From a virus (Duplodnaviria; Heunggongvirae; Uroviricota; Caudoviricetes), in IMG/VR virus record IMGVR_UViG_2529293142_000034, positions 1-10,888 of that record: a stretch of 10,888 bases of DNA; one strand, given 5' to 3'. Below, one piece after another: positions 1 through 10,888 of this stretch (positions are counted from its first letter, which is position 1; every line of letters starts with the position of its first letter). Made by a program: the position numbers and the translations under genes. Under the pieces are notes generated by a model. The model was not told where the DNA came from, made no database searches, and worked only from the letters and a program-made list of their open reading frames with translations.

Positions 1-1263
1 ATGAAGCTCACAGCCAGACAGGTCGAGACCGCAAAGCCAAAAGAAAAAACCTACAAAATGGCCGACGGCGGCGGTTTGTATCTCGAGATTTCGGCTAAGG
101 GCTCTAAATACTGGCGCATGAAATACAGACGCCCCTCAGACAAAAAAGAGGATCGCCTCGCTTTTGGTGTTTGGCCTACTGTGACGCTAGCTCAGGCAAG
201 AGTAAAGCGCGATGAGGCTAAAAAGCTGCTAGTGCAGGGCATTGACCCAAAAGCCGAACAGAAAGAAGTTCAGGCCGAGAATTCGGGGGCATATACATTC
301 GAAACCATTGCTCGTGAATGGCACGCCAGTAACAAGCGCTGGAGTGAAGACCATCGATCGCGCGTTCTTCGCTATCTTGAGCTTTATATATTCCCTCACA
401 TTGGTTCGTCCGACATTCGTCAGCTCAAGACTAGCCACCTATTAGCCCCGATTAAAAAAGTTGATGCAAGTGGTAAGCATGACGTCGCGCAGCGTCTTCA
501 GCAGCGTGTCACGGCTATCATGCGTTATGCAGTACAGAACGATTACATCGACTCAAATCCAGCCAGTGATATGGCTGGTGCTCTATCTACAACCAAGGTG
601 CGACATTACCCCGCTTTACCCTCTAGCCGATTCCCTGAGTTTCTTGCACGTCTTGCTGCATATCGTGGCCGTGTAATGACACGGATCGCGGTTGAGCTTT
701 CCTTACTAACTTTTGTGCGTTCCAGTGAGTTGCGTTTCGCGCGTTGGGATGAATTCGACTTCGATAAATCTCTATGGCGCATACCTGCAAAACGAAAAGA
801 AATTAAGGGTGTGCGTTATTCGTATCGTGGTATGAAGATGAAAGAGGAGCATATCGTTCCGCTGAGTCGTCAGGCGATGAATTTGTTAGACCAGTTAAAG
901 CAGATTAGTGGTGATAAAGAGCTGCTTTTCCCGGGGGATCATGACGCAACTAAGGTTATGAGTGAAAACACAGTGAATAGCGCATTGCGTGCGATGGGAT
1001 ATGACACAAAAACCGAAGTCTGCGGGCATGGGTTTAGGACGATGGCACGTGGTGCGCTGGGTGAGTCAGGGTTATGGAGTGATGATGCTATAGAACGCCA
1101 ACTGAGCCATTCAGAACGTAATAATGTTCGGGCTGCCTACATTCACACTTCAGAGCATTTAGATGAGCGTAGGCTGATGGTGCAGTGGTGGGCTGATTAT
1201 TTAGATATAAATAGAATGCAATATGTGACACCGTATGACTTCGCAAAGGAAGAAAATCTGTAG
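1..1263 (+). CDS. int: Tyrosine recombinase, P4-type integrase (420 aa)
   Basis: Intact 420-aa ORF starting at ATG position 1. N-terminal region (LYLEISAKGSKYWRMKYR...) is typical of P4-family integrases; C-terminal catalytic region has HGFRTMARG (His-x-x-Arg) and a downstream Tyr (VRAAYIHTSEH). Confidence 0.93.
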   Translation: MKLTARQVETAKPKEKTYKMADGGGLYLEISAKGSKYWRMKYRRPSDKKEDRLAFGVWPTVTLAQARVKRDEAKKLLVQGIDPKAEQKEVQAENSGAYTFETIAREWHASNKRWSEDHRSRVLRYLELYIFPHIGSSDIRQLKTSHLLAPIKKVDASGKHDVAQRLQQRVTAIMRYAVQNDYIDSNPASDMAGALSTTKVRHYPALPSSRFPEFLARLAAYRGRVMTRIAVELSLLTFVRSSELRFARWDEFDFDKSLWRIPAKRKEIKGVRYSYRGMKMKEEHIVPLSRQAMNLLDQLKQISGDKELLFPGDHDATKVMSENTVNSALRAMGYDTKTEVCGHGFRTMARGALGESGLWSDDAIERQLSHSERNNVRAAYIHTSEHLDERRLMVQWWADYLDINRMQYVTPYDFAKEENL

Positions 1264-1302
1264 AAATTATATGCTAACAATATATAAAACTCTTATAGTA
1301 AT

Positions 1303-1332
1303 AAACCATCCATTATTTTTAATGGATGGTTT
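1303..1332. terminator. Perfect 12-bp inverted repeat (AAACCATCCATT / AATGGATGGTTT) with a 6-nt loop, between the convergent int and cargo genes; putative bidirectional terminator
   Basis: Palindrome read directly at 1303-1314 and 1321-1332, between the int stop (1263) and the cargo gene stop (1362-1364). The stem is AT-rich and there is no clean U-tract, so terminator function is uncertain. Confidence 0.4.
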
Positions 1333-1361
1333 AAGATGAATTACTAGTTTTATGATTGAAT

Positions 1362-3657
1362 TTAAATTACTTCGACATTTTGATCATCATTAGCACTTTG
1401 CTGAACGTCGACATTAATGTCATCATCATTCGGCAGAGCCTTATAATATTCTCCCATCATCATTTTATAATGTGCAGCATTATCGCTGTATTCAAATATT
1501 TTCTGGAATATATTGAGATTTTTACTAACCGAGTTTTGGTCTAGAGCAATGTAAAGATCGTCATTTGAATGATGTGAACCGTCATTAATCCAAGATATCA
1601 ATGAATTAAATGCTATTTTTTCATCACCATCAAAATGTTTTTCGAGTTTCCATACATTAAATCCACCTAAAATTTTAAAGTAATTTTCAAGAATTCTTCT
1701 CATTGTGTTTTGTACTGTTGTGCAATTAATATCAGGGCGCCTTATCTCACTCCATAGTAAATCATATGAAGTTTTAATTGGATTGCATGCATGGCTTTCA
1801 ATGAACGATAATTTATCCTTTTTCCTAATGACCCAAAATGTTTCATCAGGACGAGCAGTATCTAAATTTCTATTCATATCGAAAGTTAACTCTTTATGAA
1901 AATAAATATTGTGAGTTAGGAAAAAGACCTGTTTTATACGGCCATTATTGTCTCTAATGTCTTTTATAAGTTTTTTCATTAATGAGCTAACTATAAACAG
2001 AATATCACTATCTAAACTTGATATAGGATCATCAAAGACAACTACTCGATCGTTCATTACACCAGATGTTGAATTACTTCCTTTGATGAGATTATAGAAA
2101 TATAGGAATGTGATAAAAGTTTTCTCACCCTCACTGAGTGTGCTTAGGGCATTATCACCATTTTCACGTACGATTCTATAGCTAAACGAATCGGATGTCG
2201 GTGCAAGGCTAAAATTTTTGAAGCCAAATGATAAAAGTATCTTATTTATAGCAGTGATTGTTGGCGTGACACTGGTTCTTTTAGATTCCTCGCTGGATAT
2301 ATTTTCAATGATATCATCTAATCTGACTTTGTCTTTTTCTAAACCCTTAATTAACCCTTCCTTAGCTCTATTTAACTGTTCCTTATCAGTATTATATTTA
2401 TTTATTTTATCAGCCAGTTCAACTTTAACTATATAATGCCATATTTCTTTTGTTAGTTTTTCTCTTTCCATGCTCCTGTTTTTGTATAGTTCATTATTTT
2501 CAAAAACTTGATTGTTAGCTGCAAGAATGATGTCTAATAATTCTTTGCCAGGCTCTAGAAGTCCTGTCATAGCGACAGGTGTACTTAATTCAGCCAATTT
2601 TCTTTTTGCTTCATCTATATTCCTTGATAATATTGATAGAATTAATTTGGATTTTGTGTTAAACAAATCCAAATCAAGGAAGGCATAGTTCCCTTCATTT
2701 ATTTTCGCAACATATTCATCAAATAAACGATACTCATGAGTATAATTTTTTAGTAATACATTAATGCTTTCTGTTTTTTCTAAATATTTTGTGTCAAAGT
2801 AACTTTCTAAATCCGATTTCAAACTACTGGGCGTATTTTGTTGGCAAAATGGACATTTGGTTTCAAGGTTATCATAGTACTTTATCCCTTCTTTAACCCA
2901 GTCACTGTTATCTAGTTGCCTTATGATTTCGGCAACGCTTGCATCTTCTTTTCCAAGAATTTTCTCTTTCCATATTTCATCGTCAACTATTTTTTTATGT
3001 TGCTAAAATTTGGTAAGGGAATTATATTGTGAACTGTTAGCGAGTCTGAGTAAACACTACCAGCCTTCGATATTAAGTATGGTAACTGGTGTAAATCTAC
3101 TTCTTTTGAATATAGCTCCTCTAATACCTTTGATTTGAATTTTTCCTGGCTGCTTCTTAAACCTTCAAATGCTTTATAGAAGTAATCATCATGTTTTTCT
3201 TTTGATTCCAGCAATCATTTTTGAAATCCAATTCAATTTTTTCAAGTTTTTGATAGATACCTAAATTTGCATTATCATTGTTATTTAAATTTCTTTTCTT
3301 GGAATCTATTGAGCTTTGCTCTTTATCCCTTTGTTGTATCAATTTGTCTATGTTATCTGTGAGCTCTTTTGTTTCTTCACCTAAAGTAAAAATACCTTTA
3401 ATACTATCTCCAGAAAAATTATTTACAACAAAATCCCTGTTGTAGACATAAGGAGTTAATTGATTGTTGTTTTTCCATTTAATCTGGCAAGTTGGAAAGC
3501 CTAAAGCATTATGAATTATTTTGCTAATTGTAGTTTTTCCAGCACCATTTGAGCCATATATGTAATTGATTTTCATTAGAGGCATCATATATTGAACGTC
3601 ATTTCCATATGAACCGGCTTGAGAAACGCTTATAGACTCTATCATTATCTTTTTCAT
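1362..3657 (-). CDS. Cargo gene: RloC/PrrC-like ABC-type ATPase with central CPFC motif and C-terminal putative nuclease domain (about 765 aa when joined); interrupted in this sequence by two homopolymer frameshifts
   Basis: Three adjacent minus-strand ORFs (3157-3657, 2987-3214, 1362-2822) join into one frame if one base is added at the T5 run 3194-3198 and at the T7 run 2990-2996. Walker A YGSNGAGKTT is at 3535-3558; reading the 1362-2822 frame upstream of its TTG start gives ...KYYDNLETKCPFCQQNTPSS (CPFC at 2844-2855). Signature-like LSEGEK, Walker B/D-loop VVVFDDPISSLD (about 2025-2045) and H-loop FFLTHN follow. Family assignment (AAA_13 / RloC-PrrC-like) is from motif recall, not a search. 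Confidence 0.7.
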
Positions 3658-3999: not shown

Positions 4000-4033
4000 A
4001 AAGCCATGCACCTTATCGATGCATGGCTTTTTT
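4000..4033. terminator. Intrinsic terminator-like hairpin (10-bp stem AAAGCCATGC / GCATGGCTTT, 11-nt loop) with a 3-prime T-tract on the plus strand and an A-tract on the other side; probably bidirectional, just downstream of psu
   Basis: Stem pairs 4000-4009 with 4021-4030, followed by TTT at 4031-4033 (T-run 4028-4033). Lies about 30 bp beyond the corrected psu stop (4064-4066). Confidence 0.5.
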
Positions 4034-4063: not shown

Positions 4064-4635
4064 TTACACTGACTGACGTGATGCCAGTTGCGCACTTTTA
4101 CGCGAAAAAATCATGTTCTGCGCAGGGGTGAATTTTTCACGGCTGTCATCCACCGAAGCCGCGTCAGGCCTGAATCCGATGGTCGTTAAAATGTCGCTAT
4201 CCTGTGCGGAATAATTAATTTTTCCCCCTTCGCAAGCCAGGACAGAAGGGCTTCACGCAGGGCATCTGTGGCACGCTGTATGGCACAGTTTCGGGCAATG
4301 GCCGTCAGCTCACTGTATCCCATCAGCTCCGGTGCCAGTGCCGCCGCCAGTGCTGTGCCGTGCTGCTGCATAAAATCATTCAGCCGGTCGCGGATGCTGA
4401 TGTGCTGAACGGCTTCATGCGAACGAATATAACGACCGGCGGCCTGATTCACCTGCCATTTTCTGACTTCGATAATATTGCGTAATTCGTCCAGGCGACT
4501 GACGTTTCTGCCTTCCCCGGACAGAAGCCGCAGATATTCCTGTTCGGCCGCAGCCAGCTCATTTTTGCGTTGCAGCCATGCTGCTTTGTTATTCTGACAG
4601 GTGTCAAAGGCCTGCTGTAAGGCTGTGCTTTCCAT
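4064..4635 (-). CDS. psu: Psu polarity-suppression / capsid-decoration protein (190 aa after a one-base correction); C-terminus out of frame here because of a homopolymer indel
   Basis: ORF 4186-4635 (149 aa) ends ...LSWLAKGEKLIIPHRIATF*. The adjacent frame reads KINYSAQDSDILTTIGFRPDAASVDDSREKFTPAQNMIFSRKSAQLASRQSV* to a stop at 4064-4066. The join needs one extra T in the T5 run 4219-4223 and gives 139+51 = 190 aa, the length of P4 Psu as I recall it. Confidence 0.85.
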
Positions 4636-5972: not shown

Positions 5973-6028
5973 TGTGACGTACACCGGACAACAACACGAC
6001 GCATTGCAGATGTGCCAGTCCTGACACA
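5973..6028 (-). promoter_or_regulatory. Candidate late promoter for sid-delta-psu with two TGT-N12-ACA activator sites of the Ogr/Delta type, centres 38 bp apart
   Basis: TGT-N12-ACA read at 5973-5990 and 6011-6028. If the distal site is centred near -55, the start of transcription falls about 5964 and the proximal site near -18, leaving a roughly 25-nt leader before sid ATG 5938. The -55/-18 arrangement is recalled for P4 late promoters. Confidence 0.55.
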
Positions 6029-6106
6029 GGAGACTCATCCTCAGACCGGCAAGCCAGGAAAAGGTCGCAGGAAAAACCGGCTTACTGTTTGTTTTTTTAT
6101 ATTTTA

Positions 6107-6220
6107 CTGTTCACCTCTGTTCACCATAAGAAAAAAGATAAGTAATACAGTAAGTTAAAGGGTGAACAATCGCAGTAATGACTGTTCACCGTCTGTTCAC
6201 CACTGTTCACCCGTTCATGG
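6107..6220. repeat. Phased 9-mer repeats CTGTTCACC (five direct copies, one inverted, one degenerate) in the divergent control region between sid and alpA
   Basis: Direct copies at 6107-6115, 6117-6125, 6182-6190, 6193-6201 and 6203-6211 (10-11 bp spacing within each cluster); inverted copy GGTGAACAA at 6161-6169; degenerate CGTTCATGG at 6212-6220. Existence is certain; function is inferred. Confidence 0.8.
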
Positions 6221-6295
6221 ACTTTTTGTGCTGTTTATTACTTTTTATTTTTATTAATTAACTGAAATAAATAAGAAAAACAATTTGTATTTCAC

Positions 6296-6301
6296 TATAA
6301 T
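6296..6301 (+). promoter_or_regulatory. Consensus -10 hexamer TATAAT facing alpA; candidate early promoter element
   Basis: TATAAT at 6296-6301 in an AT-rich stretch; no convincing -35 at 17 bp spacing, so this is weak. Confidence 0.25.
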
Positions 6302-6490
6302 TTTTTCCAGCTCCTTCCAGAGCGTTTTTAAAAGCTATCTGGCGCTGATGTGCAAAAAACACACAGCCATTGTAAGGCTGCCGGAACAAATCCCCCCTGT
6401 TGCGTCTGCCAAAAATATTCACAAAATAAAGCGCTACCCCGAAGCCGGACGGACTTATCCGGTGCTGTATGGACATTACGAGGTAGCCCG

Positions 6491-6760
6491 ATGCTAAGCC
6501 TGTTTTTTCTCCCCGTCTCCTGCCCCTGTGACGCCACTGATGCCGCTGCCGGACATCACGCAGGTAGCGTTTTTTTACGCTGCCGGAAGTGATGCACCTG
6601 TGCGGCCTGTCACGCTCGACCATCTATGAACTCATCCGTAAGGGGGAATTTCCGCCGCAGGTGAGTCTTGGCGGTAAAAAATGTGGCCTGGCTGCACTCT
6701 GAAATCACCGCATGGATGGCCGGGCGCATTGCCGGACGCAAACGGGGGTACGACGCATGA
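6491..6760 (+). CDS. alpA: AlpA-family (Vis/excisionase-like) helix-turn-helix regulator; reading frame broken twice at homopolymers in this sequence
   Basis: Core at 6580-6702 reads [34 protein letters not shown]...; removing one A from the A6 run 6676-6681 continues as ...[29 protein letters not shown] (stop 6758-6760), a close fit to the AlpA-family pattern. No in-frame start precedes the core unless one T is added to the T7 run 6570-6576, which joins it to ATG 6491 (GAGG 7 nt upstream). N-terminal boundary is uncertain. Confidence 0.65.
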
Positions 6761-7158
6761 TGATGCCCGCTCTGCAAAAAGTCCCTTTTTCTGGCTTGCC
6801 TTTTTCCGGCATTTGCGGATATAGTTTTTCTGCTGCCGCAAAATCGGCAGCCGGGCGTGGAAACCCGAGCAATTCACAGGCGGCATATGACGCGCCATGC
6901 GTCTTTTTTTGTGTCGCAATCAACGCCACAGAGCGCCAGATTATGGTGTGGTGTGTGGTCAGTCGTGCAGATGGCATTCCGTGCATCCTGCCCGCGTCCG
7001 CTCATTATGCCGCAGAGTCAATGGTAGCTCAGGCGGGGCAGCCTCCGGGCTGGCCGGTATCCTGTGAAGCCGGTATTTCCACCCCCGTCTGGGCTATCGC
7101 CATCGAGCGTGGAAACTCCGGCGATAGCGTTATTTGCTATTCACAGGAGGCTGCCATC

Positions 7159-7356
7159 ATGGCTACAACCCTCACCCCCTCACACCCTGAATTTGTCTTT
7201 GTGTTTGCGGCTGTCCGTCGCGCAGACCGTCATCCCCGTATCTGCATGCTTCGCACCGTCGCCGGTGATGAACGCAGTGCCCGCCGTTCCCTTGTCCGTG
7301 ACTATGTGCTCTCCCTTGCTGCCCGTCTGCCGGTGGTGGAGGTGTCCCGTGCGTAA
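7159..7356 (+). CDS. Small early protein (65 aa), possibly an Icd-like cell-division inhibitor
   Basis: ATG 7159 preceded by AGGAGG at 7145-7150 (8-nt spacer); sequence [65 protein letters not shown]. The stop overlaps the next gene start. The Icd-like label is from weak recall of prophage annotations. The same frame is open upstream to 6757, so the true start could lie further upstream. Confidence 0.4.
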
Positions 7357-7636
7357 TAAAAAAGCCCCTCAGACCGTCTCAGCGCGTCATGACGCCCGTG
7401 AACACCTCAGCATTGAGGCTTACCATAAGCTCAACCGCGCCAGCGCCGTATCCCAGTTTGTTGGGGGTGATTTGATTCACCGTGAACTCTCCGGCCTGCA
7501 TCAGCTCTACATTCCGCATATTTTCAGCTACCTGAATGAAGATATTGATTTTGTGCTGAATGAGCTGAAAGCCAAAGGCCTGTGCCGCGATTTTCTCGCC
7601 CAGCAGAAAGACCGGGGAGACAGGACGCATGTTTGA
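7349..7636 (+). CDS. Small early protein (95 aa), possibly the epsilon (derepression) homologue
   Basis: GTG 7349 with GGAGG at 7338-7342; no in-frame ATG exists downstream, so the GTG start is required. It overlaps the upstream stop (GTGCGTAA) and the downstream start (ATGTTTGA). The epsilon assignment is by position and size only. Confidence 0.5.
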
Positions 7637-8084
7637 TTTTCCCCAGCCCGGTGAGATTTACCGTTCTGCCGGTTTTCCCGATGTGGCCGTGGTCGGCATT
7701 CTGGAAGACGGTATTCCGTGGGAAATGCCGTACCGCTGCCCGGACATTGTCTGGAACCCGTACCGCCGTAAATTCAGTATCCTTGTGCGTATCCTCGCTG
7801 ACGGGCGCACCACAGACATCCCGCTGGGGCGTTTTCTGCGGGAATTTACCTGTGACCGTCCTGACCTGTTTAAACGCAGCCCCGTAAACCGGCATGCGGT
7901 ACTGAAAGAAATGGCCGGAGACCCGGAATTACAGAAATGGCGGGAGAAATATCTGGATATTTACCCGCAGGCCCCTGTTCCGGTCAGCCGGGCGGCACCG
8001 GTGGCGCGGGAATGGCGGGAAATTCCCCGCACGGAGCCTGACCCGGAAATCACCCCGGATAACAGTTACCGCAATTATCTGTAA
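7629..8084 (+). CDS. Conserved early-operon protein, 151 aa (orf151-like)
   Basis: Intact ORF whose ATG overlaps the stop of the preceding gene; its size and position before alpha match the P4 left-operon layout as I recall it. Function unknown. Confidence 0.65.
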   Translation: MFDFPQPGEIYRSAGFPDVAVVGILEDGIPWEMPYRCPDIVWNPYRRKFSILVRILADGRTTDIPLGRFLREFTCDRPDLFKRSPVNRHAVLKEMAGDPELQKWREKYLDIYPQAPVPVSRAAPVAREWREIPRTEPDPEITPDNSYRNYL

Positions 8085-8219
8085 TTAAAAAACGACCCCC
8101 GAAAAATTAAATGTGCGTATTCGCGCAGGGATACGCACGTCTTCAGGAGACGCAGATATGCCTTATCAGTTAATGCAACCGGCACGGAATGCAGTCATCT
8201 GTCACAGGGAGGAAAACAA

Positions 8220-8540
8220 ATGAAAACACCCTTACCGCCCGTCTTACGCGCTGCCCTTTACCGTCGCGCTGTCGCCTGTGCCTGGCTGACCGTGTGCGAA
8301 CGTCAGCACCGCTACCCGCATCTCACCCTTGAGTCACTGGAGGCGGCCATCGCCGCTGAGCTGGAAGGCTTTTATCTGCGCCAGCACGGTGAGGAAAAAG
8401 GGCGTCAGATAGCCTGTGCCCTGCTGGAAGATTTAATGGAATCCGGCCCCCTGAAGGCCGCGCCGTCGCTGTCCTTTCTCGGGCTGGTTGTGATGGATGA
8501 ACTCTGTGCCCGTCACATAAAAGCGCCGGTACTGCACTGA
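8220..8540 (+). CDS. Conserved early-operon protein, 106 aa (orf106-like)
   Basis: Intact ORF with GGGAGG upstream of ATG 8220; it ends 14 bp before the alpha start. Function unknown. Confidence 0.65.
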
Positions 8541-8554
8541 AGGAGAACAACACC

Positions 8555-10888
8555 ATGAAAATGAACGTAACCGCCACCGTCAGCCATGCACTCGGCCACT
8601 GGCCGCGTATCCTCCCGGCGCTGGGGATTCAGGTGCTGAAGAACCGTCATCAGCCCTGTCCGGTCTGTGGCGGGAGTGACCGCTTCCGTTTTGATGACAG
8701 GGAGGGGCGCGGCACCTGGTACTGCAATCAGTGTGGTGCCGGTGACGGCCTGAAACTGGTTGAAAAGGTGTTTGGTGTTTCCCCGTCCGATGCGGCCGCA
8801 AAGGTGGCTGCCGTGACCGGCAGCCTGCCCCCGGCTGACCCGGCAGTGACGGCTGCCGCCGGTGCTGAAACAGACGCTGCCCGGAAGAACGCCGCCGCAC
8901 TGGCACAAACCCTGATGGCGAAAACCCGTCCCGGAACCGGTAACGCCTACCTGACCCGCAAGGGCTTTCCCGGCCGGGAATGCCGGATGCTGACCGGCAC
9001 ACACAGAGCCGGTGGCGTGAGCTGGCGTGCCGGTGACCTTGTGGTGCCACTGTATGACGACAGCGGCGAACTGGTTAACCTTCAGTTAATCAGTGCTGAC
9101 GGCCGTAAGCGCACCCTGAAAGGCGGACAGGTCAGGGGCACCTGTCACACCCTTGAAGGACAGAATCAGGCCGGAAAACGTCTGTGGATAGCGGAGGGAT
9201 ACGCGACCGCACTTACCGTGCATCACCTGACCGGTGAAACGGTGATGGTGGCGCTTTCTTCCGTGAATCTCCTTTCTCTGGCCAGCCTTGCCCGGCAGAA
9301 GCATCCGGCCTGTCAGATTGTCCTTGCTGCTGACCGTGACCTCAGCGGTGACGGCCAGAAAAAAGCCGCCGCAGCCGCAGATGCGTGTGAAGGTGTTGTT
9401 GCCCTGCCGCCGGTCTTCGGTGACTGGAATGATGCCTTCACGCAGTACGGCGGGGAAGCCACCCGTAAGGCCATTTATGATGCCATCCGGCCACCGGCTG
9501 AAAGCCCGTTCGACACCATGAGCGAAGCGGAGTTTTCCGCCATGAGTACCAGCGAAAAGGCCATGCGTATCTATGAGCATTACGGCGAGGCGCTCGCGGT
9601 CGATGCCAACGGCCAGCTTCTGTCCCGCTATGAAAATGGTGTCTGGAAGGTGCTGCCGCCACAGGACTTTGCCCGGGATGTGGCCGGGCTGTTTCAGCGT
9701 CTGCGCGCGCCGTTCTCCTCCGGGAAGGTGGCCTCCGTGGTGGACACCCTGAAGCTGATTATTCCGCAGCAGGAAGCCCCCTCCCGCCGCCTGATTGGCT
9801 TTCGTAACGGCGTGCTCGACACGCAGAACGGCACGTTCCACCCGCACAGTCCGTCACACTGGATGCGCACCCTGTGTGATGTGGATTTCACCCCGCCAGT
9901 GGAAGGGGAAACGCTGGAAACCCACGCCCCCGCGTTCTGGCGCTGGCTTGACCGTGCCGCCGGTGGCCGTGCGGAAAAACGCGACGTGATTCTGGCCGCA
10001 CTGTTTATGGTGCTGGCAAACCGCTACGACTGGCAGCTCTTTCTGGAGGTGACCGGTCCCGGCGGCAGCGGCAAAAGTATCATGGCCGAAATAGCCACCC
10101 TGCTGGCCGGGGAGGATAACGCCACATCGGCCACCATTGAGACGCTGGAATCCCCGCGTGAACGTGCCGCGTTAACTGGCTTCTCACTGATACGCCTGCC
10201 GGACCAGGAAAAATGGAGCGGCGACGGTGCCGGACTCAAGGCCATCACCGGCGGCGATGCGGTGTCCGTTGACCCGAAATACCGGGATGCGTACTCCACG
10301 CACATCCCGGCGGTGATTCTGGCCGTGAACAATAACCCGATGCGCTTCACCGACCGCAGCGGCGGCGTGTCACGCCGGCGGGTGATTATTCACTTCCCTG
10401 AACAGATAGCCCCGCAGGAGCGCGACCCGCAGCTTAAGGACAAAATCACCCGCGAGCTGGCGGTCATCGTGCGTCACCTGATGCAGAAATTCAGCGACCC
10501 GATGCTCGCCCGGTCACTGCTTCAGTCCCAGCAAAACTCAGACGAGGCGCTGAACATCAAACGGGATGCCGACCCGACGTTTGATTTTATCGGCTATCTG
10601 GAAACCCTGCCGCAGACCAGCGGCATGTATATGGGGAACGCCAGTATCATCCCGCGCAATTACCGTAAATACCTCTATCACGCCTATCTGGCCTACATGG
10701 AGGCAAACGGCTACCGGAACGTACTCAGTCTGAAAATGTTCGGGCTGGGGCTGCCGGTGATGCTGAAGGAATACGGACTGAATTACGAGAAGCGCCATAC
10801 CAAACAGGGGATACAGACCAACCTGACGCTGAAAGAGGAAAGCTACGGCGACTGGCTGCCAAAATGTGACGACCCTGCAACAACCTGA
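8555..10888 (+). CDS. alpha: Alpha protein: P4-type primase/helicase (zinc finger + Toprim primase + D5-like NTPase), 777 aa, complete
   Basis: AGGAG 9 nt upstream of ATG 8555. N-terminal zinc-binding motif CPVCGGSDRFRFDD...CNQCG, Toprim-like acidic region (EGYATAL ... LAADRDLSGDG) and Walker A GPGGSGKS at 10055-10078. The 777-aa length equals that of P4 alpha as I recall it. Confidence 0.93.
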   Translation: MKMNVTATVSHALGHWPRILPALGIQVLKNRHQPCPVCGGSDRFRFDDREGRGTWYCNQCGAGDGLKLVEKVFGVSPSDAAAKVAAVTGSLPPADPAVTAAAGAETDAARKNAAALAQTLMAKTRPGTGNAYLTRKGFPGRECRMLTGTHRAGGVSWRAGDLVVPLYDDSGELVNLQLISADGRKRTLKGGQVRGTCHTLEGQNQAGKRLWIAEGYATALTVHHLTGETVMVALSSVNLLSLASLARQKHPACQIVLAADRDLSGDGQKKAAAAADACEGVVALPPVFGDWNDAFTQYGGEATRKAIYDAIRPPAESPFDTMSEAEFSAMSTSEKAMRIYEHYGEALAVDANGQLLSRYENGVWKVLPPQDFARDVAGLFQRLRAPFSSGKVASVVDTLKLIIPQQEAPSRRLIGFRNGVLDTQNGTFHPHSPSHWMRTLCDVDFTPPVEGETLETHAPAFWRWLDRAAGGRAEKRDVILAALFMVLANRYDWQLFLEVTGPGGSGKSIMAEIATLLAGEDNATSATIETLESPRERAALTGFSLIRLPDQEKWSGDGAGLKAITGGDAVSVDPKYRDAYSTHIPAVILAVNNNPMRFTDRSGGVSRRRVIIHFPEQIAPQERDPQLKDKITRELAVIVRHLMQKFSDPMLARSLLQSQQNSDEALNIKRDADPTFDFIGYLETLPQTSGMYMGNASIIPRNYRKYLYHAYLAYMEANGYRNVLSLKMFGLGLPVMLKEYGLNYEKRHTKQGIQTNLTLKEESYGDWLPKCDDPATT

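Follow-up and report, generated by a model that had tools for sequence, protein, structure and literature searches.

Comparison with related satellites identifies the 21-codon open reading frame (ORF) in front of cnr as the leftover of a 75- to 86-amino-acid gene that most relatives of phage P4 still carry. The explanation that accounts best for the region as a whole, and to which we assign a probability of about 70%, is that the short ORF is a vestige and that the hairpin 5′ of it is a separate, conserved stem-loop of the plus strand, a candidate element for setting RNA ends.

The stretch of DNA that was analyzed (10,888 nucleotides, hereafter the window) is, judged by its sequence, a P4 prophage. 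Positions 7600 to 8700 are 99.1% identical to satellite phage P4 (X51522/NC_001609), and coordinates convert as P4 position = 15524 − window position. The integrase gene (1 to 1263) lies at the left end of the window; a low-GC hotspot, the minus-strand genes psu/delta/sid, and the immunity region follow in this order between the integrase and epsilon. On the plus strand, epsilon is located 5′ of orf151 (7629 to 8084; phrog_10748, function unknown), whose homologues in other lineages are 50 to 76% identical. Together these two genes form one module, the 3′ boundary of which is the spacer. From the stop of orf151 to the hairpin this spacer is A-rich on the plus strand (8085 to 8110), a composition that is kept among lineages with only 60 to 80% conservation of the sequence. 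It is followed on the same strand by cnr, or orf106 (8220 to 8540; DUF5375, PF17345, E = 2.9e-63), and alpha (8555 to 10888). P4 is the reference satellite phage, and the cnr-alpha segment controls its replication and plasmid copy number.

The short ORF occupies positions 8158 to 8223 of the plus strand. Its Shine-Dalgarno (SD) sequence, AGGAGA (8145 to 8150), lies 7 nt before the ATG and within the invariant block CAGGAGAC; the stretch TCAGGAGA shows no variation in 14 distinct lineage sequences. Its TGA (8221 to 8223) overlaps the ATG of cnr (8220 to 8222) in the four bases ATGA (8220 to 8223), an overlap that feeds cnr, and the SD sequence of cnr, GGGAGG (8207 to 8212, plus strand), is contained in its last codons and is recorded as a potential ribosome-binding site in X05623. 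The initial annotation had described this ribosome-binding site, the 21 codons and the stop on the cnr start codon, and each was found where it had been placed. None of the sequence records compared, including GenBank X02534 and X05623, annotates the short ORF. The motif ggagg is found 7 nt 5′ of the cnr ATG in almost all of 80 loci. The reference P4 sequence (positions 2613 and 2617 of that locus) has GGGAGA AAAGC where the region of window positions 8212 and 8216 reads GGGAGG AAAAC; G at 8212 is the majority allele among 151 sequences, and the cnr SD of laboratory P4 is therefore weaker than that of most natural copies.

The relationship to a longer gene is clearest in the element of Escherichia coli TW10598 (locus L004), where the same hairpin, AGGAGAC and ATG CCT lead into an 86-amino-acid ORF (1671 to 1931 of that locus) that ends in ATGA on cnr. 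In the pairwise alignment P4 has a gap of 195 nt, which is exactly 65 codons and keeps the frame. Nucleotide searches (blastn) aligned the spacer and approximately the first 11 codons of this element to P4-type DNA of about 970 E. coli genomes with 82% identity (E = 2e-16), and the last codons of the P4 ORF (TGT CAC AGG GAG GAA AAC AAA TGA) align with the end of the full gene (TGY AAY CAR CGC TGG CTG ACC GGG GAG GGC AAC GTA TGA). The cnr SD is the ortholog of the G-E codons in the C-terminus of the full gene, ...GEGNV*. It is this orthology of start and stop with a real gene, and not the length, that sets the short ORF apart from a random one.

Other E. coli elements carry a homologue of 73 to 75 amino acids at the same place. 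A scan with one genome per species, based on alignment of Cnr, gave 73 loci, 72 of them analyzable; among these P4-like loci a full gene for 73 to 86 amino acids lies directly 5′ of cnr in 65, and overlaps it by ATGA in 63. The encoded family is phrog_10110, of unknown function and represented by no Pfam or NCBIfam model; the proteins of L004 and of two further loci (L007 and L008) match its profile at E values of 5e-40 to 2e-46. When the 21-amino-acid product was compared with family profiles, phrog_10110 included, no family was matched. The P4 ORF has the placement of phrog_10110, being 5′ of cnr with the ATGA overlap and the cnr SD in its last codons, and its initiation region and start codon context (hairpin, CAGGAGAC, ATG CCT) are those of the N-terminally extended 86-amino-acid form of orf151-bearing elements. 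It differs in that only about 11 to 14 codons of the N-terminal extension and about 7 to 9 degenerate C-terminal codons are kept, and in that the conserved domain of the family (LEHLRNVGQ...IYLMTAQLDGVVERC) is wholly gone. On these alignments the P4 ORF is the remnant of a phrog_10110 member, and not itself a member.

In the survey of Moura de Sousa and Rocha (2021, PMC8628076) the 75-amino-acid family was found in 61% of P4-like elements and was called “absent from P4”; the P4 stub is not described there. What our analysis adds is that the gene is deleted in frame in P4, with both ends and about 20 degenerate codons retained.

The basal layout of P4-like elements explains where the two ends of the stub come from. 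It consists of an icd-like gene, the 75-amino-acid gene and cnr, with an ATGA overlap at every junction. In elements that lack orf151, the icd-like gene ends on the start of the 75-amino-acid gene (44 loci with a gap of −4), and we read 11 further such loci, scored with a gap of +2, as having the same overlap with a misassigned start. The chaining of the three genes by ATGA (or TGATG) overlaps is seen in these 44 loci and, for example, at 1290 to 1293 in L007 and at 1248 in L009. This arrangement suggests a fixed ratio of synthesis for the 75-amino-acid protein and Cnr, which may act together. In the lineage with epsilon-orf151 the gene gains an N-terminal extension of 11 residues, and the start of the resulting 86-amino-acid form is a new initiation region, made of the hairpin, CAGGAGAC and ATG CCT, that comes from the spacer. 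P4 has kept this spacer-derived start and the original end with the cnr SD and ATGA, and the 195 nt between them are gone.

The fate of the gene was followed in 212 hairpin-bearing loci, which came from scanning IMG/VR by means of orf151 and metagenomes by means of the hairpin pattern. The 21-codon stub is present in 177 of them and the full 86-amino-acid gene in 26. A different stub of 24 codons (MPYKQNNDAINHNNPCSLTGEVNI*) occurs in two loci (L160 and L269), and in two others (L063 and L222) cnr is joined directly to the hairpin-proximal SD and ATG. Single loci carry a nonsense allele (L162), a frameshift (L167), a stub without its ATG (L145), a stub with its SD mutated to ACGAG (L231), and a 21-codon stub next to a cnr that has lost its start (L207). 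One more frameshift case was found (L032), and it terminates early, as do L167 and L162. The 86-amino-acid gene has therefore been lost repeatedly, as the 24-codon stub, the fusion to cnr, the nonsense allele and the frameshifts attest. Among 5426 complete E. coli genomes, about 919 to 1000 have the P4-type stub, and only 16 have the hairpin with the full gene.

Several of these loci deserve closer description. The 24-codon stub (1948 to 2100 in L160, and L269) begins with MPY as in P4, carries LTGE.N as in the C-terminus of the full gene, and has the same ATGA overlap. In the two fused loci (2428 to 2503 in L063, a Scandinavium metagenome-assembled genome, and approximately 3095 to 3175 in L222, a metagenome contig) the 86-amino-acid gene is wholly deleted, and the hairpin-proximal SD and ATG (MPV...) drive Cnr itself. 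The orf151 genes of these two loci belong to different clades, which implies recombination across the spacer. In the orf151 tree the 21-codon, 24-codon and L063-fusion forms cluster, and one deletion, followed by further in-frame change, may lie behind both the 21- and the 24-codon stub. Such a history, with one old loss and then a change that kept the frame, would be a weak hint of selection for an open frame that ends on the cnr start. In E. coli CFSAN027346 (L005, 1448 to 1606), and also in H45 and H46, an IS66-family element (ISCro1) borders on a P4-like remnant within the 5′ arm of the hairpin, at approximately 8118 in window numbering; the remnant has lost all sequence 5′ of this junction and keeps the stub, cnr and alpha.

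The peptide itself does not appear to be maintained. Segregating changes in 151 P4-type sequences number 1 synonymous and 8 nonsynonymous for the stub (pN = 0.156), compared with 24 synonymous and 10 nonsynonymous for cnr (pN = 0.043, pS = 0.295; Fisher p = 0.002 for the difference between the two). Purifying selection is therefore not acting on the peptide. An intact ORF is seen in 177 of 181 P4-type copies, but with at most 2% difference between copies this says nothing about selection on the open frame. The density of segregating sites over 8085 to 8219 is approximately 0.14 (0.12 to 0.15 per site in spacer and stub), with no codon pattern, versus approximately 0.30 at the synonymous sites of orf151 and cnr; the halved density in spacer and stub could reflect a mild constraint at the nucleotide level or an effect of recombination.

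These observations bear on the proposal of the initial annotation, that the short ORF is a translationally coupled leader peptide, or micro-protein with a function, and that the hairpin gates expression of cnr and alpha. The strong SD and ATG, the overlap with cnr, the nearby hairpin, the intact copies and the lowered site density all speak for it, but we consider it very unlikely. In relatives the place of the peptide is taken by an 86-amino-acid protein, by a different 24-amino-acid stub or by nothing, and L063 and L222 dispense with the ORF entirely; conservation of the amino acid sequence in related elements had been the check proposed for a functional peptide, and its failure is the outcome that had been named in advance as counting against one. 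The excess of nonsynonymous polymorphism points the same way. Moreover, the ORF is an in-frame deletion remnant with no terminator or alternative structure 3′ of it, and the hairpin stands 5′ of the ORF and, in the predicted fold, pairs with neither SD nor either start codon, so that neither the leader peptide nor the gating structure holds up. Leader-peptide attenuators of the trp, his and pheA type likewise have a short ORF with its own SD, 5′ of a gene and beside a hairpin; unlike them, P4 has the hairpin ahead of the ORF and has no terminator/antiterminator pair, no U-tract and no run of regulatory codons. Positions 8158 to 8540 are without a terminator-like site except for weak matches within coding sequence at 8522 to 8538 on the minus strand, and a match at 8669 to 8684 is similar.

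The suggestion of translational coupling agrees with the anatomy: the strong SD and ATG of the short ORF are the ones from which relatives make a real protein, the SD of cnr falls within the ORF, and stop and start overlap in ATGA. Coupled cistrons with an ATGA overlap are known from trpE-trpD and trpB-trpA of E. coli. The P4 junction resembles them in the four-base overlap and in the downstream SD lying inside the upstream frame, and basal satellites have a chain of such overlaps, from the icd-like gene through the 75-amino-acid gene to cnr. It is unlike them in that the upstream partner is a non-functional stub and the cnr SD is predicted to be free. Because an identical initiation region drives real proteins in relatives, we infer that the stub is still translated. 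Ribosomes terminating at the UGA (8221 to 8223) would sit on the cnr AUG and could reinitiate there. With the stub translated, only 73 of the 135 nt separating orf151 from cnr would remain untranslated, which would limit Rho-dependent polarity on cnr-alpha, and the peptide made would itself have no function. Dependence of cnr on the stub is probably at most partial, given that the cnr SD is strong and unpaired in the centroid fold, and that natural variants interrupt the stub. Indeed, the variants without the stub ATG (L145) or SD (L231) and those with early termination (L162, L167, L032) indicate that uninterrupted translation into cnr is not obligatory. A possible sequestration of the cnr SD by the C-run at 8096 to 8100 was rejected, since it appears in the minimum free energy fold but not in the centroid, and the C-run is polymorphic; the fold of the 176-nt region has a z-score of −0.22.

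The hairpin has a history of its own. Its core arms, GTGCGTAT (8113 to 8120) and ATACGCAC (8131 to 8138), are perfectly complementary with 10 nt between them, which confirms the 8-bp perfect stem reported initially. As plus-strand RNA the conserved stem-loop extends over 8111 to 8140, with a 12-bp stem (8111 to 8122 paired with 8129 to 8140, including two G·U pairs) and the loop GCGCAG (8123 to 8128). The predicted fold has a ΔG of −17.5 kcal/mol and a z-score of −4.9, and 1 of 200 shuffled sequences folds as well. Inverted repeats of 8 bp are common in themselves, with 48 pairs in the window (exact seed of at least 8 nt, within 20 nt), and the hairpin stands above chance because it is conserved and not because of the repeat as such. 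The dyad was already listed in the 1984 GenBank record X02534 as an “imp. region of dyad symmetry” (approximately window positions 8109 to 8143). A second copy of GTGCGTAT at 7786 to 7793, inside orf151, was set aside as a chance occurrence, because by our reading its Val codon changes in relatives.

Conservation of the hairpin in related satellites, another check proposed at the outset, was borne out. In nine lineages, 28 to 30 of its 30 positions are identical to P4, next to third codon positions of orf151 and cnr that are 51 to 67% identical. This indicates that the hairpin, its loop included, is functional and strongly held by purifying selection. It is found only in orf151-bearing elements, always at a distance of 26 to 29 nt from the orf151 stop and with 4 nt separating it from the invariant CAGGAGAC. 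The variable pairs are those of 8121/8122 with 8130/8129, which appear as U·G plus C-G, C-G plus U·G, or U-A plus C-G, and position 8138, where G-C becomes G·U. In the main lineages all of the variation keeps the pairing of the plus-strand RNA, and several of the changes give A·C mismatches on the minus strand. Across lineages 94% of pair cells are paired, and the changes are exclusively one-sided and wobble-compatible; a covariation test of the hairpin found no double compensatory changes, and the shuffle control was not significant. In the most divergent lineages (L062 and L066) 3 to 4 of the 12 pairs are broken without compensation and the helix is lost. Loop and stem are conserved to the same degree, a pattern that argues for recognition of a specific sequence and not of structure alone.

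Searches for a known class of signal at this site were negative within their scope. On the plus strand no U-tract comes after the stem, where P4 reads GUCUUCAGGAG and relatives read GUCCUC, GUGCUC or GACCUC, and the terminator scan did not report the hairpin, which is not what is expected of an intrinsic terminator. The scan of positions 8000 to 8220 gave no promoter-like or terminator-like sites, Rfam covariance models gave no match at the hairpin at E ≤ 1, and a blastn search of 8085 to 8160 against phages at E ≤ 10 returned only P4 records. A cnr-alpha promoter in the gap, for which Lin had proposed a “−10” at approximately 8080 to 8085 in 1984, was rejected on the same scan; the hexamers that come into question, TTAAAA-16-TTAAAT, are weak and differ from lineage to lineage. 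Duplex energies of the CI (C4) RNA with 8085 to 8160 and with 8150 to 8230 were within 1 standard deviation of shuffled sequences, by a method that also missed the known a1b1 target.

Two other readings of the dyad were weighed against a plus-strand RNA element. The A-rich stretch at 8085 to 8110 would give, on the opposite strand, a U-rich tail (AUUUAAUUUUU) directly after the stem, and its U-richness is kept in all main lineages despite variation of the sequence. Together with a minus-strand fold of −10.7 kcal/mol (z = −2.3), this would suit an intrinsic terminator that keeps antisense transcription arriving by way of alpha and cnr out of epsilon and the immunity region. Such a terminator would, however, have an 8-bp stem and a 10-nt loop and fails the terminator scan; TC/CT at 8121 to 8122 and C8138T pair only on the plus strand, and no minus-strand promoter-like site was found in 6000 to 9000, a scan that ended within alpha. 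We regard this reading as decidedly unlikely. Slightly better placed, and still unlikely, is a site in double-stranded DNA, either a protein operator or a linker for recombination of modules. In favor of it, loop and arms are conserved at the level of primary sequence and show no compensatory pairs, the helix is lost from L062 and L066 whereas their 5′ arm and loop persist, and the orf151 and cnr phylogenies disagree across the spacer, with L222 and L063 sharing the fused cnr and differing in orf151 clade. A dimeric operator, though, would neither conserve the 10-bp spacer between its arms nor tolerate loss of a half-site, and no binding protein is known; 93 to 100% identity beside saturated synonymous sites exceeds what a passive recombination linker needs. 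The variable positions are exactly those at which G·U wobble preserves the RNA helix.

Hairpins between cistrons are known to set the ends or the stability of transcripts, as in the RNase III sites of the early T7 RNA, the RNase E processing of papB-papA, and the REP sequence of malE-malF. The P4 hairpin is like these in its stability and conservation, in its position in the one untranslated gap of notable size in the polycistronic operon, in separating gene groups of different roles, and in having AU-rich single strand 5′ of the stem. Within this class the fit to particular enzymes varies: the 12-bp stem is short for RNase III, and the RNase E motif RNWUU fits P4 and, by our own reading, is missing in L004 and L160. 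The class also requires no conservation of the loop, in contrast with the conserved loop found here. An intercistronic element for RNA ends, processing or stability is the likeliest assignment, a tentative one that we hold at somewhat less than even odds.

As an RNA-end element, the hairpin would place an end between the genes for helper exploitation (epsilon, orf151) and those for replication (cnr, alpha). A shorter transcript could have its protected 3′ end here, or the hairpin could protect the 5′ end of a processed cnr-alpha mRNA; either type would uncouple the expression levels of epsilon-orf151 and cnr-alpha. The relevant transcript would start far upstream. A sigma-70-like promoter (TTGCCT-18-TATAGT, 6796 to 6825, plus strand) lies just 5′ of the matches to c4-a1b1/isrK and C4 RNA and, by inference, is probably PLE. 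From its expected start at approximately 6832, coordinates give 1.31 kb to the 3′ end of the hairpin and 4.06 kb to the alpha stop. Early Northern work on P4 reportedly found PLE transcripts of 1.3 and 4.1 kb, and this match is a lead only, not evidence.

A more far-reaching proposal combines both parts of the region: the 30-nt stem-loop, including GCGCAG, would be a previously undescribed cis-acting RNA element confined to orf151-bearing satellites, bound by a sequence-specific factor that splits the early operon into one transcript for helper exploitation (epsilon-orf151) and one for replication (cnr-alpha), and selection would have kept the mini-ORF open and in frame, once the 75-amino-acid gene had gone, as a device that delivers ribosomes to cnr-alpha and counters polarity. 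We consider this combination doubtful. If it were true, copy-number control in P4 would be tied to translation of a functionless peptide.

The vestige and the separate stem-loop add a minor detail to a genome that is already well studied; they do not make up a new regulatory device and leave the general picture of P4 biology unchanged. A translatable stub of a family-wide gene explains the odd 135-nt gap in the early operon of P4. The 75-amino-acid gene is dispensable, having been lost repeatedly in the lineage that gained epsilon-orf151, and the stub offers a handle on what its protein does with Cnr. Few non-coding stretches of these elements are conserved as well as the hairpin, and a role for it in setting RNA ends, if real, would account for unequal expression of the helper-derepression and replication genes within one operon.

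Some features elsewhere in the window were recorded as well. The only Rfam matches are C4, c4-a1b1 and isrK, all within 6819 to 7104. The isrK match (6832 to 6909; 74.9 bits) overlaps c4-a1b1 (6819 to 6871), with C4 antisense RNA at 7017 to 7104, and the start of the isrK model at 6832 coincides with the start expected from the promoter at 6796 to 6825. The “IsrK” family of Salmonella thus seems to be the counterpart of the PLE leader and immunity region in P4.

The hotspot between int and psu has a GC content of 0.29 to 0.34 over 1200 to 3600. Within it an AAA_13 (PF13166) ATPase is split between two minus-strand ORFs approximately 330 nt apart, one of 486 amino acids (1362 to 2822; profile positions 270 to 713) and one of 166 amino acids (3157 to 3657; profile positions 3 to 142), and is probably a disrupted anti-phage defence gene in this known P4 hotspot. 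Perfect inverted repeats are found just 3′ of the int stop (1302 to 1315 with 1320 to 1333; 14 bp, 4-nt loop) and near the 3′ end of psu (4000 to 4010 with 4020 to 4030; 11 bp, 9-nt loop), and these two hairpins are likely terminators at the hotspot edges. The Psu ORF at the edge of the hotspot (4186 to 4635, minus strand) encodes 149 amino acids that cover positions 1 to 136 of the 182 in the Pfam Psu profile, and may be truncated at its C-terminus relative to the reference Psu.
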